A stretch of DNA of 64,000 nt from an uncultured Clostridium sp. (GTDB lineage: Bacteria > Bacillota > Clostridia > TANB77 > CAG-508): contig CAOJXR010000002.1 in the NCBI GenBank assembly GCA_948465565.1, forward strand, positions 87,139 to 151,138, written 5' to 3'. Position numbers and translations under genes: made by a program. Shown in pieces: positions 3,698-9,274 of this stretch (position 1 is its first letter; each line of letters opens with the position of its first letter). The notes beneath the pieces were generated by a model. That model saw nothing but the letters and a program-made list of their open reading frames with translations, was not told where the DNA came from and did no database searches.

Positions 3698-4012
3698 TCA
3701 GATATACTGTGCGTGATGCCGGAAAGCATACCACTTGCCGCCTTCCTCGAAGACACCTTCGTGGCTTCCGCCAGGGCAGTACCAGCCATCGGTGATATAC
3801 GGGTGGCTGTCTCTGATTTTCTTCAGCTCACTACGAGCCTCATCTTCATTATCGAAGCCAGCAGAGCTGATGAAAGTTTCTTCATAGACCTTTTTCAAGG
3901 TCTGAAGTTCATTGCGCAGGGTTTTAGGCAGGGGGCTGTCATACACCAGCTTCTGTACAGCCGACCGTGTTGTCGCCTCTTGAACATAAGTCCAGGTCAT
4001 CTTGTAAGCCAT
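3698..4012 (-). CDS. Hypothetical 104-aa protein in a high-GC island
   Basis: ORF MAYKMTWTYVQEATTRSAVQKL.. with AAGGAGG 7 nt upstream of the ATG. GC is far above the surrounding sequence, and the gene has its own terminator. Confidence 0.5.
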   Translation of the reverse strand: MAYKMTWTYVQEATTRSAVQKLVYDSPLPKTLRNELQTLKKVYEETFISSAGFDNEDEARSELKKIRDSHPYITDGWYCPGGSHEGVFEEGGKWYAFRHHAQYI

Positions 4013-4078
4013 AATAGCTCCTCCTTAAAATTAGTACACTATTATTATAACATGTATTTACATAATTTTCAATCTTTG

Positions 4079-4438
4079 TTATTCTCTGAACTCTTTTGCT
4101 AATTTACTAATTGCTTTACTTTCTATTCGTGATACATATGATCTAGAAATTCCATAAATGTCAGCAACTTCATTTTGAGTAAGTGGTTTTTCGTTATTAA
4201 GACCAAATCTCAAAATTAAAATTTCTTTTTCTCTTGGTTTTAGCGTTGTTTCCATTTTCTCGTATAATTTCTTTTGCTTTAGTTTTAAATCAATTGCGTC
4301 TTCTATACTTCGCTCGTTGTTTTCTAGTATCTCTTGTAATGTAATGACGTTATCATCTTTATCTTTTCCAATTGGTTCGTTTAAATATACTTCTGAATTT
4401 AATTTTTTTGAGTTTCTGAAGAACATTAAAATTTCGTT
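4079..4438 (-). CDS. sigK: RNA polymerase sigma-K factor, C-terminal fragment downstream of the intervening element
   Basis: The translation ..EILMFFRNSKKLNSEVYLNEPIGKDKDDNVITLQEIL..ILRFGL..GISRSYVSRIESKAISKL matches sigma-K regions 3-4. The in-frame codons upstream of the annotated Met read IANEIL. Confidence 0.8.
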   Translation of the reverse strand, partial: NEILMFFRNSKKLNSEVYLNEPIGKDKDDNVITLQEILENNERSIEDAIDLKLKQKKLYEKMETTLKPREKEILILRFGLNNEKPLTQNEVADIYGISRSYVSRIESKAISKLAKEFRE

Positions 4439-6126
4439 TGCAATTCTCCCCTGTTGGAAAAATCATCTTTAATATTTCTTGCACCTATAAAATTAATAGT
4501 TATATTCTCTCCATCACTTGTAACTGAACTAATTAGTAACTTTATCATATTTCTTTTTGTATTTAAGTCTAATGTATCAAATGATGTAAAATATGTATCA
4601 AATATGTTAAGTAACATATTTGCAGTTTCTGTATCATTTATTTCATCGTAATCTGTATTAGTTAATTCTTTTATTCTTTTTTCTATTTCTGCATTTGCTT
4701 GTTTTAATCTTTTTATTTCTTTTGATAGGTCATCTAACAATGAAATATCAACATATTTAATTTTGTCTAGTAATAAAGAAATGTCATTCTCATTTTTCTT
4801 TAATATTGTTTTTAAGCTTTTTAGCTCTTCACTGTTTTGGTTATTTTCATTAAAAGATTTTGATGCTATATTTTTTAGCGCCTTATAAAATTTAGAATCT
4901 GGCATTGCTAGTTTCTTTATTTCTTCCATTACTAAATCATCTGCTTCTAAACCATTAATATTTTTACATTGACATTTTTGCTTTTTACTTTTATCTTTTA
5001 ACTCACACATATAATCAAATACTCTACGACCATTGCTGTCTACTGTTTTATTTTTTAATTTTGCTCTCATAAATGAACCACAATGAGAACATCTTAATAA
5101 TCCAGATAATAGAGCATTACTTGTGCTTGGTTTTCTATATTTCATATCACGGTTTCTATTTAATAAATTTTGTACTTCTACCCATTCTTTACCTGAAATA
5201 ATGCCTTTATGTTTTCCTACAGCAACTATCCATTCTGTTATATCTTTCTTTTCTACCATATTATTTGACCCAGTTTGTTTAGTTTTATTATATACCATTA
5301 AACCTTGTGTTCCATTAAATTCTTTTTCATCTGCATATATTTCAATTCCAAAGTTCTTAAAGTATTCTAATGTATCTTCATCTGCCATTGCATAAACAGG
5401 ATTAGTTAGAATATTAGTTAATGCCCATCTCGTATATAATTTTCCATTCTTTGTTTTTATATCGTTTTGAATTGTATAAGTTTCTAATTTTGTTAATGAT
5501 TTTAATTCTAAAAATTTATGAAATAAACTTTTAGAAATGATAATTTCATCATCAATAGGAGATAATTTATATAATTTTCTTTTCTTATTATCTATAGTAA
5601 TATTTTCTATTTGTTCAGATTTAAAACCTGTAGGAGTTGTACCTCCTAACCAACGACCAGTTTTGGCAAGCTCAATCATATTATCTCTTATACGTTCTGC
5701 AATAGTATCTCTTTCTAATTGTGCAAATACTGAAATCATAAACATCATTGCTCGTCCACTCGGAGTTATATTTTCTATACTTTCTGTAGCTGATAAAAAG
5801 GAAACATTATAATTATCAAATTCATTTACTAAGCTACTAAAGTCGGATACATTACGACTAATTCTATCTAATTTGTAAAAAACGACAGTGTCGATTTTTT
5901 TATCTTTAATGTCTTTTAGCATTCTTTGAAATGATGGTCTATTAGTATTATATCCAGTATATCCTTCATCTTCATAAATAATAACGTCATTATCTAAGTC
6001 AATATTGTCAAATGTTAATTCTATTTTTCTTTTACAAGCTTCTATTTGATTATGTGTGCTTTCTCCTTTACCTGTGAATTTTGATTTACGTGAGTATATT
6101 GCTTTTTTTCTAGTTTCTTTTACCAT
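4426..6126 (-). CDS. Large serine recombinase (SpoIVCA-like)
   Basis: 566 aa with an N-terminal resolvase domain (AIYSRKS catalytic Ser region, VVFYKLDRISRN), a recombinase domain and a C-terminal zinc ribbon (CSHCGS..CQC). Its stop codon overlaps the sigK junction. Confidence 0.85.
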   Translation of the reverse strand: MVKETRKKAIYSRKSKFTGKGESTHNQIEACKRKIELTFDNIDLDNDVIIYEDEGYTGYNTNRPSFQRMLKDIKDKKIDTVVFYKLDRISRNVSDFSSLVNEFDNYNVSFLSATESIENITPSGRAMMFMISVFAQLERDTIAERIRDNMIELAKTGRWLGGTTPTGFKSEQIENITIDNKKRKLYKLSPIDDEIIISKSLFHKFLELKSLTKLETYTIQNDIKTKNGKLYTRWALTNILTNPVYAMADEDTLEYFKNFGIEIYADEKEFNGTQGLMVYNKTKQTGSNNMVEKKDITEWIVAVGKHKGIISGKEWVEVQNLLNRNRDMKYRKPSTSNALLSGLLRCSHCGSFMRAKLKNKTVDSNGRRVFDYMCELKDKSKKQKCQCKNINGLEADDLVMEEIKKLAMPDSKFYKALKNIASKSFNENNQNSEELKSLKTILKKNENDISLLLDKIKYVDISLLDDLSKEIKRLKQANAEIEKRIKELTNTDYDEINDTETANMLLNIFDTYFTSFDTLDLNTKRNMIKLLISSVTSDGENITINFIGARNIKDDFSNRGELQTKF

Positions 6127-6269
6127 TATTTCGTTCCTTTCCTACATGTGATATTTGTAATAGTTTATCACTTTTAACTTAAAAAGTCTATAAAAATAGA
6201 TGCAAATATTAAATTTACATCTATTTTCTCGTAATTTCTATTTAACAATTTCATGAAATAACATAATTA

Positions 6270-6575
6270 TTATTTTAATTTTTCAATTTCTCTCATAGCT
6301 TTCATTCCTAGGTAGTATCCTAAAGCAATATAATAATTTGTAATTTCTGAATTATATCTAGTATATTTATTTAATATTTTTCTCTGTGATTCATCAAAAT
6401 AATCCAGTAAATGAATTTCAAGTTCTCTAAATTCATCTTCCAAATCATTGTATTGGCGATTTCTTCGTAACACCTTCATATTATCGATTACTTTTTCATT
6501 AATTAGTTTTATATCTAATTCTGAAAAAATAAAACTAGGCTTTTTTTCTTCTTCCATAATAAATTCCTTTCTCAA
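6270..6575 (-). CDS. Hypothetical protein (element cargo)
   Basis: 101-aa ORF with no recognisable motif. Confidence 0.35.
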   Translation of the reverse strand: MRKEFIMEEEKKPSFIFSELDIKLINEKVIDNMKVLRRNRQYNDLEDEFRELEIHLLDYFDESQRKILNKYTRYNSEITNYYIALGYYLGMKAMREIEKLK

Positions 6576-6676
6576 ATTATATGATTTATTTTGTTTTACG
6601 CATACGCTTTGTAGGTGTTTGTGACTAAAAAAATAATATTTACTATATAATCACACAAACTATAGTAGGTGATGTA

Positions 6677-6895
6677 ATGAAATTTATTGCAAATGATTAT
6701 ACTCCTAAAGAGATAATTCGTATAATTAGAGAATGGACTGAATTAACTCAAAAAGAATTCGGTAAAACTATAAATCGTAGCGAAAAAGGTATTCAAGCAT
6801 TTGAACTTGGTACTAGAAATTATGATATGGCTACTTTAATTCAAATTGCTAATACGCATGGTATAAAAATAATTATAGAAAAGAGAGAAAAATAA
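6677..6895 (+). CDS. Small XRE-family HTH regulator
   Basis: 72 aa with a helix-turn-helix pattern (LTQKEFGKTINRSEKGIQAFELG). Confidence 0.55.
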   Translation: MKFIANDYTPKEIIRIIREWTELTQKEFGKTINRSEKGIQAFELGTRNYDMATLIQIANTHGIKIIIEKREK

Positions 6896-7040
6896 TAATG
6901 TTTTTCTTTCTTTTTTTATATATTGTTATTTGCAAAATATTATTTACTTTTATAATGCAACATCTACGTTGTCTATAATACCACATAATTATTATAAAAT
7001 CAACCTATAATAATTATTGAACGTTGGGAAAAGATATATT

Positions 7041-7298
7041 ATGAAAAATACAATAAAATATAAAGGCAAGCTTAATGCTATTGGTAATAAAATAAAAGAT
7101 TATCGAAAATTGAATAATATGACACAAAAAGCACTTTCAGAAAAGTTACAATTATATGGTATTGACTTAAATAAGAACTCTTTACAGAAAATAGAAAAAG
7201 GAACTAGAATTATAAAAGAATATGAACTTGCTGCTTTTTGTAAGGCATTTGATGTTTCTGCTGACTTATTATTAAAGGATTGTATTGATGAATTATAA
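7041..7298 (+). CDS. XRE-family HTH regulator
   Basis: HTH motif MTQKALSEKLQLYGIDLNKNSLQKIEKG. The ATG at 7041 is preferred over the upstream TTG at 7017. Confidence 0.55.
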   Translation: MKNTIKYKGKLNAIGNKIKDYRKLNNMTQKALSEKLQLYGIDLNKNSLQKIEKGTRIIKEYELAAFCKAFDVSADLLLKDCIDEL

Positions 7299-7349
7299 TA
7301 GTTACTGTTTATATAAGATAAAAGAATTTATGCTTTTATCTTTTTATTT

Positions 7350-7715
7350 TTATATAATTCTAGCAATTTCTTCAATTATATTTTTATTAGTAAAAATATA
7401 TTCATCATAATCAAATCCAAAAATCCTTTTAAAATTCTTAACTGTTTTTTCTTCTATCCTATGGTCTATTGCATATTTTATAGTCATCTTTATTTGTGAT
7501 ATATTAAATGATTTATAGTTCTCTTTAATTAATGAGTATATGTTATCAATAATTATAAATTCTGTATTGCTATTATAAACATATTTGATTGCTTCTATTA
7601 GTAATATTGTTCCCTTGTGACTAGTGTTTAATCCCAAAGAACGTAGGATATCTCTAATTAGAATATCTTGTTCATTTTTTGTTTTTAAATTACTTTCATA
7701 TTGTACACTTTCCAT
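7350..7715 (-). CDS. Stand-alone Spo0A C-terminal DNA-binding-domain-like protein
   Basis: The 121-aa protein aligns along its length with the Spo0A effector domain: SHKGT~HIKGY, LLIEAI~YLREAI, VYNS~VYND, IFGF~LFGY. It has no receiver domain. Confidence 0.6.
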   Translation of the reverse strand: MESVQYESNLKTKNEQDILIRDILRSLGLNTSHKGTILLIEAIKYVYNSNTEFIIIDNIYSLIKENYKSFNISQIKMTIKYAIDHRIEEKTVKNFKRIFGFDYDEYIFTNKNIIEEIARII

Positions 7716-7810
7716 CTCTTCCCTCCATAAAAATTTATATCAAAAAGAAATTATTTAATTGTATCTATTCTTTATGTTATTAATATACCAACTTTATGTA
7801 AACATTGCAA

Positions 7811-7950
7811 AATAATAAAATCTGCACTACATGCATTGAAATATGCGTGTAATGCAGATTTTACTTTGGTTTTCAGCTGTTCTATAATATAAATTACTAA
7901 TATCTTATATAAATAAAAAAATATTGCGTGCTACGCAGATTTAAAAATAA
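7811..7950. promoter_or_regulatory. Cluster of related inverted and direct repeats (operator-like) plus a hairpin terminator
   Basis: aaaatctgcact..tgcgtgtaatgcagatttt forms a hairpin. A near-direct copy attgcgtgctacgcagattt occurs about 75 bp downstream. Confidence 0.3.
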
Positions 7951-8557
7951 AACATGGGAACTAAACCAATGAATAAAATTCCCATGTTCTACATTTTAGG
8001 TCTTAATCCCTAAAATATATAAATTAATCCAAACTATTGCGAGTAGTTTAGAGTAATTATTAAAATTATAATTGATATTTCTATAAATATCAATAGATTT
8101 AGGGGGAATTGTTCCCCCTTCAGCTTGAATGGCTTATATTTCATCAACGATGTTATATACTGGAAATCCTCCTGGACTTCCACCATCTAGGAAAATTCTG
8201 TTTTTCATTGGTTTAATTTCCTTATATTAAAATCTATCAAGTAAAAATTCAATATTAATTAATACAGGAAATAAACCAATAGTTTAAAATCTTGTATATA
8301 TAAAAAATCCAGGCACTCGCAATGCCTGAATATCATTATTGAACATCAAGCATTACGCTTGTGGAATGGATTAATTAATTAAGATTTTAATGCCATTCTT
8401 TTTACTATATTTAGTTATTTTTATTATACTACTTTTAATCAATATTTTCAAATTTTATTCGCTGTGTTTGCTGATATATCTTGTTTTTATTGATACTTTA
8501 CATAAAAAATGTTATAATTAATATGTAATTTTTATTAAAGAAAGTGGTGGTATACTT

Positions 8558-9274
8558 ATGTTTAATAAAAAAGATTTTGGTATAAAAATTAAAGTTGCTC
8601 GAAAATCCAGAGGTTTAAGTCAAGAAAATCTGGGAAAAGCAATAGGAAAAAATGCTACAACAATAGGAAGATATGAATCTGGAGAAATTATGCCAGACGC
8701 TGAACAAATTAGCTTGATTTGTGATGAATTAGGAATAGCTGAATATGAATTATTTGATACCTCTAGTAAAATATTAAATAAAGAAAATAATAGAAATCCT
8801 TTTAATACAAACAAGTTATATTTATTTTATAAAGCTTTTTATCCTAAAAGCAATAATTATAAAAAAGGGAAATTTATATTGGATATAATTGAAAAACCTG
8901 ACTGTTGTAAGGTAAATTTTGTAGATTATAAAACTAACAAAATTTATTTATCTGGATATATGATGTCTGATAGTAATGTTGCTATATTCATTTTTGAAAA
9001 TTATAAAGAAAACAATTTAAGACTGGAGGTTTCGGAAATTATATTAAATATTGCTAGAGGAACAAACACTCTTATGTTAGGTAGTTTTCATTGTACAAAT
9101 GGAAATTATGAACCTTCTGTTAGACGTTGTATGATTTCCACAGAGGATATTGATTTTTCTGATGAGATGTATAGAAAATTAGAAATTACTGATAGAGAAC
9201 TTGAAGAATTAAAAGCAAAAAGTATATGGTATGTTGATGTCGTTGATAAATATGATTTTGAAGATAATATTTAA
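8558..9274 (+). CDS. XRE-family HTH domain protein with unknown C-terminal domain
   Basis: N-terminal HTH (LSQENLGKAIGKNATTIGRYESGE); the 238-aa C-terminal part has no motif I recognise. Confidence 0.55.
   Translation: MFNKKDFGIKIKVARKSRGLSQENLGKAIGKNATTIGRYESGEIMPDAEQISLICDELGIAEYELFDTSSKILNKENNRNPFNTNKLYLFYKAFYPKSNNYKKGKFILDIIEKPDCCKVNFVDYKTNKIYLSGYMMSDSNVAIFIFENYKENNLRLEVSEIILNIARGTNTLMLGSFHCTNGNYEPSVRRCMISTEDIDFSDEMYRKLEITDRELEELKAKSIWYVDVVDKYDFEDNI

Follow-up and report, generated by a model that had tools for sequence, protein, structure and literature searches.

A receiver-less Spo0A effector-domain protein in a putative regulatory cassette of gut Clostridia mobile elements, with one copy in an element inserted in sigK

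In gut Firmicutes, sporulation drives both persistence and transmission, under the master switch Spo0A. It has been proposed that homologues of Spo0A without a receiver domain, carried on mobile DNA, hijack this switch; to our knowledge, none has yet been tested. A set of such homologues (n = 29) was described from human-gut viromes, and signal-independent control of sporulation has already been proposed for these truncated genes (Schwartz et al. 2023, mBio; PMC10294663). In Spo0A itself, the isolated DNA-binding domain binds legitimate targets without phosphorylation, and the recognition helix is conserved from Bacillus to Clostridia (PMC3485338). Also closely related are the skin elements known from B. 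subtilis, C. difficile, and other bacteria, in which sigK is split and a SpoIVCA-like recombinase is encoded at one edge of the element, directly upstream of the 3′ part of sigK (PMC5025042). Skin elements range from 2.6 to 48 kb and share only the spoIVCA gene, which was found at the same position in 15 of them (Galperin et al. bioRxiv 10.1101/2022.02.25.481979). The locus described here joins the two subjects, with a Spo0A C-terminal-domain protein, S0AC, encoded inside a skin-type element. The virome homologues and the sporulation-control hypothesis were known before (PMC10294663); the mobilizable-element context, a diverged recognition helix, the anatomy of the surrounding cassette, and a population polymorphism at sigK are new.

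The element is about 8.85 kb long (positions 4437–13284 of the window, which is the whole 64-kb stretch of DNA analyzed), inside the reported size range of skin elements. It separates two sigK halves, both on the minus strand: a 5′ part (spoIVCB-like, 13286–13625) that is a sigma-70 region-2 fragment with an ORF span of 13227–13625, and a 3′ part (spoIIIC-like, 4079–4436) that is a region-4 fragment with an ORF span of 4079–4426. Joining the two gives a product that passes the SigK equivalog TIGR02846 (299.8 bits against a cutoff of 298.65) and is essentially identical to an intact SigK of 232 aa (P0174) that is indexed in 137 collection blocks. The junctions come from an empty-site allele, on a contig (L085) with the same neighbor genes and 99.8% identity to both window flanks; the intact sigK allele reads CIENEIL at the junction. 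The crossover dinucleotide is AA, at 4437–4438 and 13285–13286, attB is TAGAAAACGAAATT, and the reconstructed attP core is a perfect palindrome, AATTGCA-AA-TGCAATT (GAATTGCAAATGCAATTATCAC). By the population-level evidence of the empty-site allele, as distinct from an observed excision, precise removal of the element would restore an intact sigK.

A SpoIVCA-like large serine recombinase (566 aa; 4426–6126, minus strand) with Resolvase, Recombinase, and Zn_ribbon_recom domains ends at the junction beside the 3′ sigK fragment, such that its last three codons and stop are host DNA past the crossover. Given the exact junctions from intact-sigK strains and this recombinase at the edge, the label "skin-like," applied earlier in a sequence-only reading of the same DNA, is correct. 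Excision during sporulation would be expected by analogy with the skin paradigm. The insertion is polymorphic in the population, and empty and occupied sites are both common. The S0AC protein recurs unchanged in 110 indexed collection blocks, with the same sigK context in all six of the places listed and an element identity of 99.3–99.99% across them. Searches of the JGI metagenomes with the predicted intact-sigK junction and with the sequence just upstream of it returned zero matches each, so that collection does not contain the species. Candidate sigma-E/sigma-K promoters were also sought by eye upstream of sigK and of a 101-aa ORF near the recombinase; CATATA-type −10 elements are present there, and these were set aside as unconvincing.

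Unlike known skin elements, the element in the window carries the backbone of a MobV mobilizable element as cargo, has no phage genes, and is polymorphic in its insertion. The relaxase belongs to the MobV family (Mob_Pre; 11475–12455, plus strand) and scores 131.4 bits with NF041497 (cutoff of 100) and 139 bits with Mob_Pre. Upstream of it, a DNA block that is 79–88% identical upstream of mob in several loci is a candidate oriT (11266–11359), and a RadC-like JAB and DUF3846 protein (9642–11039, plus strand) also belongs to the backbone. The scan of element ORFs of at least 72 aa, which takes in all but two short ones of 51 and 58 aa, found no conjugation-machinery domains (coupling protein or type IV secretion) and no phage genes, structural ones included. 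No Rfam family was found in positions 4000–14000 of the window at the E-value threshold. With a relaxase and its own integrase and without transfer machinery, the gene content points to integrative mobilizable element (IME) cargo and not a prophage. This shows that a skin-type element can be built on the backbone of a mobilizable element and need not derive from a prophage. Tn4451/Tn4453-type clostridial mobilizable transposons are also small and likewise pair a relaxase of the Mob/Pre family with a large serine recombinase. They carry catP and are not known to contain a Spo0A_C gene or to target sigK. The element in the window codes for four HTH_3 proteins. At its far end, a double-HTH_3 protein (12763–13272, minus strand; 164 aa where it is called elsewhere) lies directly downstream of the sigK 5′ half and starts 12–27 nt inside the element end.

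S0AC is the 121-aa product of an ATG-start ORF (7350–7715, minus strand). It matches the Pfam model Spo0A_C (PF08769) with 32.7 bits and an E-value of 7.7e-8, above the gathering cutoff of 25, and residues 20–119 align with positions 1–102 of the 104 in the model; no second domain was found in the Pfam scan. With the NCBIfam Spo0A equivalog TIGR02875, it scores 26.4 bits, far below the cutoff of 200, and the match is confined to the C-terminal part of the model (136–236 of 262). In phmmer searches of the PDB, the Spo0A C-domains 1lq1 (E 0.004) and 1fc3 (E 0.024) rank first. An AlphaFold2 (AF2) model built from an alignment of 23 homologues has a mean pLDDT of 88.6 and six helices, and residues 1–13 are disordered, which leaves no space for a receiver domain. 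The top seven Foldseek matches of this model in the PDB are all Spo0A C-domain chains (1fc3/1lq1; TM 0.57–0.73, probability 1.00), the best superposition has a TM score of 0.73 with an rmsd of 2.5 Å, and the first match outside Spo0A is already at E = 3. The six-helix helix-turn-helix fold of the Spo0A C-terminal effector domain (PF08769; 1FC3, 1LQ1) is thus shared by both profile and structure, at 22–27% sequence identity. S0AC is confirmed as a receiver-less Spo0A effector-domain protein.

These results bear out what the sequence-only reading had said of the protein, namely that it aligns along its whole length with the Spo0A effector domain and has no receiver. The three alignment blocks quoted there were reproduced by phmmer against the PDB and by hhalign, with the middle block one residue off. 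The check proposed with it, structure prediction and superposition on the Spo0A C-domain, gave the confident model and the match described above, and neither of the results named as contrary to it, a lack of Spo0A_C profile similarity or an unlike fold, was found. The phospho-accepting N-terminal receiver of Spo0A is absent, so, like the isolated Spo0A DNA-binding domain, S0AC should need no phosphorylation. Unlike Spo0A, it is encoded on a mobile element, occurs in several copies per genome, and has an altered recognition helix in addition to lacking the receiver.

S0AC is one member of a sizable family. An exhaustive profile search gave 428 cluster representatives at E ≤ 0.001 and 78 at E ≤ 1e-10, and a pattern scan of 185,579 species genomes gave 77 related loci, nearly all in metagenome-assembled genomes (MAGs) of uncultured gut Clostridia and often several per MAG. 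S0AC is divergent from a gene for an Xre-type HTH_3 regulator of 237–240 aa, H238, in 48 of the 77, making 49 loci with the window, where H238 lies at 8558–9274 on the plus strand. The spacing between the two genes across the 49 loci is 594–847 bp, with one exception of 236 bp. The pairing was found again when an H238 homologue was the query. After H238, the order in related loci is RadC/DUF3846, an Xis-like gene, a tyrosine integrase, and MobV, and most of the 48 syntenic loci have the tyrosine integrase and Xis-like gene. None of the 48 encodes either sigK half, so the sigK location belongs to the window copy alone. A distantly similar serine recombinase (29–31% identity) is found in only two of them, several kilobases from the cassette. 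By these comparisons, S0AC is a standard regulatory gene in the backbone of a mobilizable-element family that is widespread in gut Clostridia.

Compared by description, the virome spo0A homologues (PMC10294663) and S0AC are both effector domains only and both come from mobile DNA of gut Firmicutes. Unlike the virome set, the S0AC family is found in relaxase-bearing mobilizable elements. No match to the family was obtained in INPHARED, PLSDB, IMG/VR (none confirmed), or PHROGs, and it was not found by tblastn among 50,697 phage records. S0AC is not phage-borne.

The surface that would read DNA has changed relative to Spo0A. In phmmer and hhalign alignments, the recognition helix of S0AC, S-Q-I-K-M-T-I-K-Y-A-I-D, lies over S-R-V-E-R-A-I-R-H-A-I-E of Spo0A. 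S0AC lacks the motif S-[RK]-V-E-R-[AG]-I-R-H-A-I-E, which is kept in bona fide Spo0A of Bacillus, Geobacillus, and one Clostridia representative. A literature search for named base-contacting residues of Spo0A gave nothing usable; we take them to be E213, R214, and R217, and these identities play no part in the argument. The S0AC-family helix has a consensus of its own, Q-I-[RK]-N-x-I-x-Y-A-[LI]-x-x-R, which keeps a polar and basic face through Q74, R/K76, N77, Y81, and R86 and is variable at positions 78 and 80. The 0A box, TGNCGAA, does not occur in the element (zero in 4437–13284), and across the whole window its 14 occurrences against 9.7 expected are no enrichment. S0AC is therefore unlikely, on these motif comparisons, to read 0A boxes.

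These findings bear on the function proposed for S0AC in the sequence-only reading, that of a constitutively active Spo0A mimic which, at the 0A boxes of the host, would turn sporulation on, delay it, or block it and so couple the element to its own excision trigger. The idea draws on the shared fold, on the phosphorylation-independent binding of the isolated Spo0A domain (PMC3485338), on the location of the window copy in sigK, and on the same proposal having been published for truncated virome homologues (PMC10294663). Against it, every exposed position of the recognition helix is changed relative to true Spo0A, identity to the Spo0A C-domain is low, the element has no 0A box, and the majority of the family lies in elements outside sigK. 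One MAG carries four copies (L020, L034, L041, and L064) with four different S0AC helices and different operators. Such variation at exposed helix positions among co-resident copies fits a single fixed host target poorly and is as expected for element-specific targets. We consider the mimic unlikely, and the earlier picture of a 0A-box binder tied to a skin lifestyle was not sustained. With moderate confidence, we favor a role for S0AC as a regulator of the element; as a backbone gene of an element family with changed DNA-reading residues, it probably regulates the element and not the sporulation of its host.

The stretch that separates S0AC from H238 is conserved and keeps its order from locus to locus, −35/−10 pairs and hairpins included. 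Starting from S0AC, a conserved sigma-A-type promoter (TTGCAA-17-TATATT; 7782–7810, minus strand) has TTTACATAA in its spacer at 7794–7802, and this promoter and the ribosome-binding site are conserved across loci. Abutting its −35 is a terminator-like inverted repeat with 21-nt arms followed by a T-run (7816–7863, minus strand). Within this repeat are two palindromes of the form TGCR-N5-YGCA, C (7823–7835) and B (7844–7856), and a third operator-like copy, palindrome A (TGCGTAGCACGCA; 7925–7937), is followed by another T-run; all three are listed on the minus strand. Next come a conserved hairpin, ACATGGGAA...TTCCCATGT, with a T-run (7943–7987, minus strand; ACACGGGAG...CTCCCGTGT in other loci) that is the likely end of the P3 transcript, and the near-consensus P3 promoter (TTGATA-17-TATAAT; 8065–8093, minus strand), which also lies in conserved intergenic DNA. 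A conserved G+C-rich hairpin, GGGGGAA-CAA-TTCCCCC (8102–8118, minus strand), differs in stem letters among loci and retains complementarity. Farther on, an sRNA-like unit of about 110 nt (8307–8451, minus strand) runs from promoter P1 (TTGAAA-17-TATAAT, 8423–8451) to an intrinsic-terminator-like hairpin at 8307–8331. The H238 operon promoter (TTGATA-17-TG-TATAAT; 8490–8518, plus strand) has TTTACATAA at 8497–8505 in its spacer. A 24-aa ORF (MKNRIFLDGGSPGG...) was considered as a conserved peptide and rejected; it overlaps a conserved block, and its frame is lost in most other loci.

The palindromes are concentrated near S0AC. There are seven TGCR-N5-YGCA sequences in the window against 1.26 expected, three of them within 115 bp upstream of S0AC, and compensatory changes are seen in 11 of 18 predicted pairs in the B/C inverted repeat and the small palindrome-A stem. 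A variant, TACG-N5-CGTA, accompanies the H238 helix KT[SP]AT with any S0AC helix (L064/L066 versus L003/L018, compared by eye), and the common S0AC helix QIRN[SA]IKY is found with both palindrome variants. Since the variant tracks the H238 helix and not the type of S0AC, the three palindromes are tentatively assigned to H238 as candidate operators. The mutual information between operator class and residues of either S0AC or H238 gave no discrimination, as everything covaries with clade and the automatically assigned classes are crude; the informative cases are the discordant loci compared by eye.

In 23 of 49 loci, the 17-nt spacer of the promoter of S0AC contains TTTACATAA, a sequence that is also present in some P1/P3-type promoters. 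Promoters with it in the spacer number 36, against 0.68 in shuffles, and its count over the whole window, 6 against 3.8 expected, is not enriched. It is a candidate S0AC binding site because it is conserved across elements, as is the Q/RK/N face of the S0AC helix, and it may also be simply inherited promoter sequence.

The arrangement resembles the divergent Xre-type repressor switches of temperate phages and integrative and conjugative elements, where palindromic operators lie between the gene of an HTH_3 regulator and the divergent gene of another small DNA-binding protein. Unlike those switches, the control region of the cassette is unusually long (about 0.8 kb), it includes sRNA-like units that bring promoters and terminators of their own, and the regulator opposite H238 has the fold of Spo0A and not that of Cro or Xre.

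Under the element-regulator reading, S0AC, a control region of 0.6–0.85 kb, and the divergent H238 would form a portable regulatory cassette carried by gut Clostridia IMEs. One further H238-bearing element lacks both S0AC and the long spacer, indicating that S0AC and the control region behave as a cassette; since some H238-bearing IMEs do without them, the cassette appears to be dispensable for mobility. S0AC would be a free-standing helix-turn-helix transcription factor, constitutively competent in its Spo0A effector-domain fold, and it most likely binds element-specific AT-rich DNA, such as the candidate site above, and not 0A boxes. The control region would provide several near-consensus promoters, sRNA-like units, and terminator-like hairpins. 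H238 is likely to head an operon with integration, anti-restriction-like, and relaxase genes, and as the probable binder of the three TGCR-N5-YGCA operators it would gate S0AC synthesis, while the terminator-like hairpin would insulate S0AC from upstream transcription. S0AC would then act on the promoters of the cassette, possibly including its own (autoregulation). Since every promoter of the cassette is close to consensus, there is no obvious need for an activator. The IME backbone in the window has a SpoIVCA-like recombinase module where its relatives have the tyrosine integrase and Xis-like gene; this module and the precise sigK location suggest that the cassette was carried into a skin-type element.

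The locus makes the question of hijacking concrete, with a defined protein and a 0.8-kb control region containing candidate operators. It also offers, at sigK, a natural presence/absence polymorphism in a single species, and there are dozens of relatives whose recognition helices differ. If the family is an element-internal regulator, counts of "sporulation genes" on mobile elements that are made from domain hits alone need caution.

A different role for S0AC, acting mainly through protein contacts, is somewhat less probable than the mimic. S0AC could occupy sigma-A or sigma-H of RNA polymerase as a decoy for the activating region of Spo0A, or it could bind H238 as an anti-repressor. The family has 20 invariant columns, and its best-conserved stretch is the C-terminal FGF-YDEY-F-NK-IEE segment (N94, F95, F99, G100, F101, Y103, D104, F108, I114, E115, and E116 are invariant), which could be a protein–protein surface. 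This stretch aligns with the Spo0A segment around FGY, which is presumably the sigma-A-activating region, and residues 100–109 of S0AC are acidic with a net charge of −3. A few family members have acidic residues in the recognition helix (QIADNIYY and QIDDCIYY). However, the same stretch is conserved in Spo0A itself and may be structural, and the family as a whole is basic, with Q, R/K, N, and R retained on the recognition helix. S0AC in the window is neutral (pI 6.7), and the family median of 9.3 compares with 9.4 for the Spo0A C-domain.

We give about the same low credence to a broader scenario, in which the Spo0A fold was taken over as the output regulator of a self-contained, portable cassette, with an Xre sensor-regulator, that spreads among gut Clostridia mobilizable elements, and the copy in sigK senses or overrides the host sporulation decision, coordinating excision, transfer, and spore formation. 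This would operate through competition with Spo0A~P for RNA polymerase or through AT-rich 0A-like sites.

It is very unlikely that S0AC is the recombination directionality factor (RDF) of the serine recombinase, or an activator of one, that gives sigK excision its direction. The RDFs of serine integrases are small and diverse (PMC5025042, PMC5499854), and none was identified in the element, yet S0AC is conserved in relatives with a tyrosine integrase and Xis-like gene that have no such recombinase. A better positional candidate is the element-specific 101-aa ORF (6270–6575, minus strand) beside the recombinase, which makes up the recombinase-side module (6270–6895) together with a 72-aa HTH protein (6677–6895, plus strand). 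Among the 77 related loci, the first has no match and the second matches only one (L037). Least credible of all is a functionless, decaying spo0A remnant, as suggested by the few homologues that are partial or solitary in the chromosome (L013, and L021 between sortase and mutL), given that the reading frame is unbroken and does not vary (100% identity) among the six contigs sampled, its exact sequence recurs across the collection, and the invariant columns, confident AF2 model, and conserved promoter and ribosome-binding site all speak of conservation.

The model of H238 shows an HTH_3 domain like that of C.BclI or P22 c2 followed by an eight-strand beta domain at the C terminus, for which the matches are just weak, high-rmsd ones to HTH-cupin proteins. 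On the other side of S0AC and convergent with it, a small HTH_3 protein, H93 (7017–7298, plus strand), is also found in 17 related loci.

The "intergenic" stretch of 0.84 kb (window 7716-8557) between the gene for S0AC, the receiver-less Spo0A_C-domain protein, and that for H238, the divergent Xre-type regulator, is conserved across 48 related loci in both length (~0.6-0.85 kb) and sequence. Along with the conserved block GATGGTGGAAGTCCAGGAGG, it contains two or more sRNA-like units that have near-consensus promoters and hairpins resembling terminators. A search of Rfam returned no match for this region, which may encode unrecognised regulatory RNAs.

The cassette formed by S0AC, this control region, and H238 can be present several times in one genome. 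MAG MGYG-HGUT-04073 holds five family loci (L020, L034, L041, L064, and L076), all but the last of which are full cassettes (4/5). The S0AC recognition helix, the H238 helix, and the operator variant (the form of the control-region palindrome tentatively assigned to H238) all differ from cassette to cassette, a situation reminiscent of immunity groups, which avoid cross-talk. A related mobilizable element (L090-L092) encodes an H238 homologue (60% identity) together with a tyrosine integrase and Mob_Pre, and it has neither S0AC nor the long control region, so this element family can do without the S0AC cassette.

Coupling of the element to sporulation could also be independent of S0AC. A double-HTH_3 gene (window 12763-13272, reverse strand) follows immediately after the 5' half of sigK and has its start 12-27 nt in from the element end, with the junction at 13285. 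While the element is integrated, the sigK promoter (mother-cell specific in model species) could drive transcription of this gene; excision would instead place it downstream of the recombinase gene. The crossover (window 4426-4445 and 13278-13290) falls within the 3' end of the recombinase gene itself. In the integrated form the protein ends in ...ELQTKF and a stop codon, and on the excised circle the reading frame would continue as ...ELQMQLSHVGKRSGN before its stop. The reconstructed attP core, AATTGCA-AA-TGCAATT, is a perfect palindrome. Immediately upstream of the recombinase is a 101-aa ORF (window 6270-6575, reverse strand) with no match in Pfam or PHROG and no homologue among the 77 related loci; its position makes it a candidate recombination directionality factor.

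Two copies of the sigK element depart from this organization. In L080 (GCA_948667015.1), S0AC is identical, but the relaxase is degenerate and the recombinase call is broken into three fragments. L078 is missing ~90 bp spanning the H238 start (equivalent to window 8522-8611). Either the assemblies are wrong at these points, or these are decay variants in which the element is locked in sigK. Solitary S0AC homologues outside any recognisable element, which may be remnants or domesticated copies, are found in L021 (10001-10267), between a sortase gene and mutL/miaA, and in L013 (10001-10312), adjoining surface-protein genes.

Spo0A_C-like domains also appear in other architectures. Six metagenomic proteins (P0049, P0053, P0105, P0111, P0127, and P0128) consist of 2 to 6 such domains in tandem with no receiver domain, and the Spo0A-like helix VERAIR[HY]AIE is kept in several of the repeats; we know of no description of this arrangement. 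Other matches to the S0AC family profile are 232-246 aa long, shorter than canonical Spo0A (P0139, P0144, P0158, and P0172, along with L015:2196-2894, L034:12110-12850, and L076:8977-9693). Judged by eye, the four P-numbered proteins seem to combine divergent recognition helices with an N-terminal receiver-like part. In L015 and L034, the copy has a sigma-70-like gene within ~1.5 kb and is close to the mobile-element copies.
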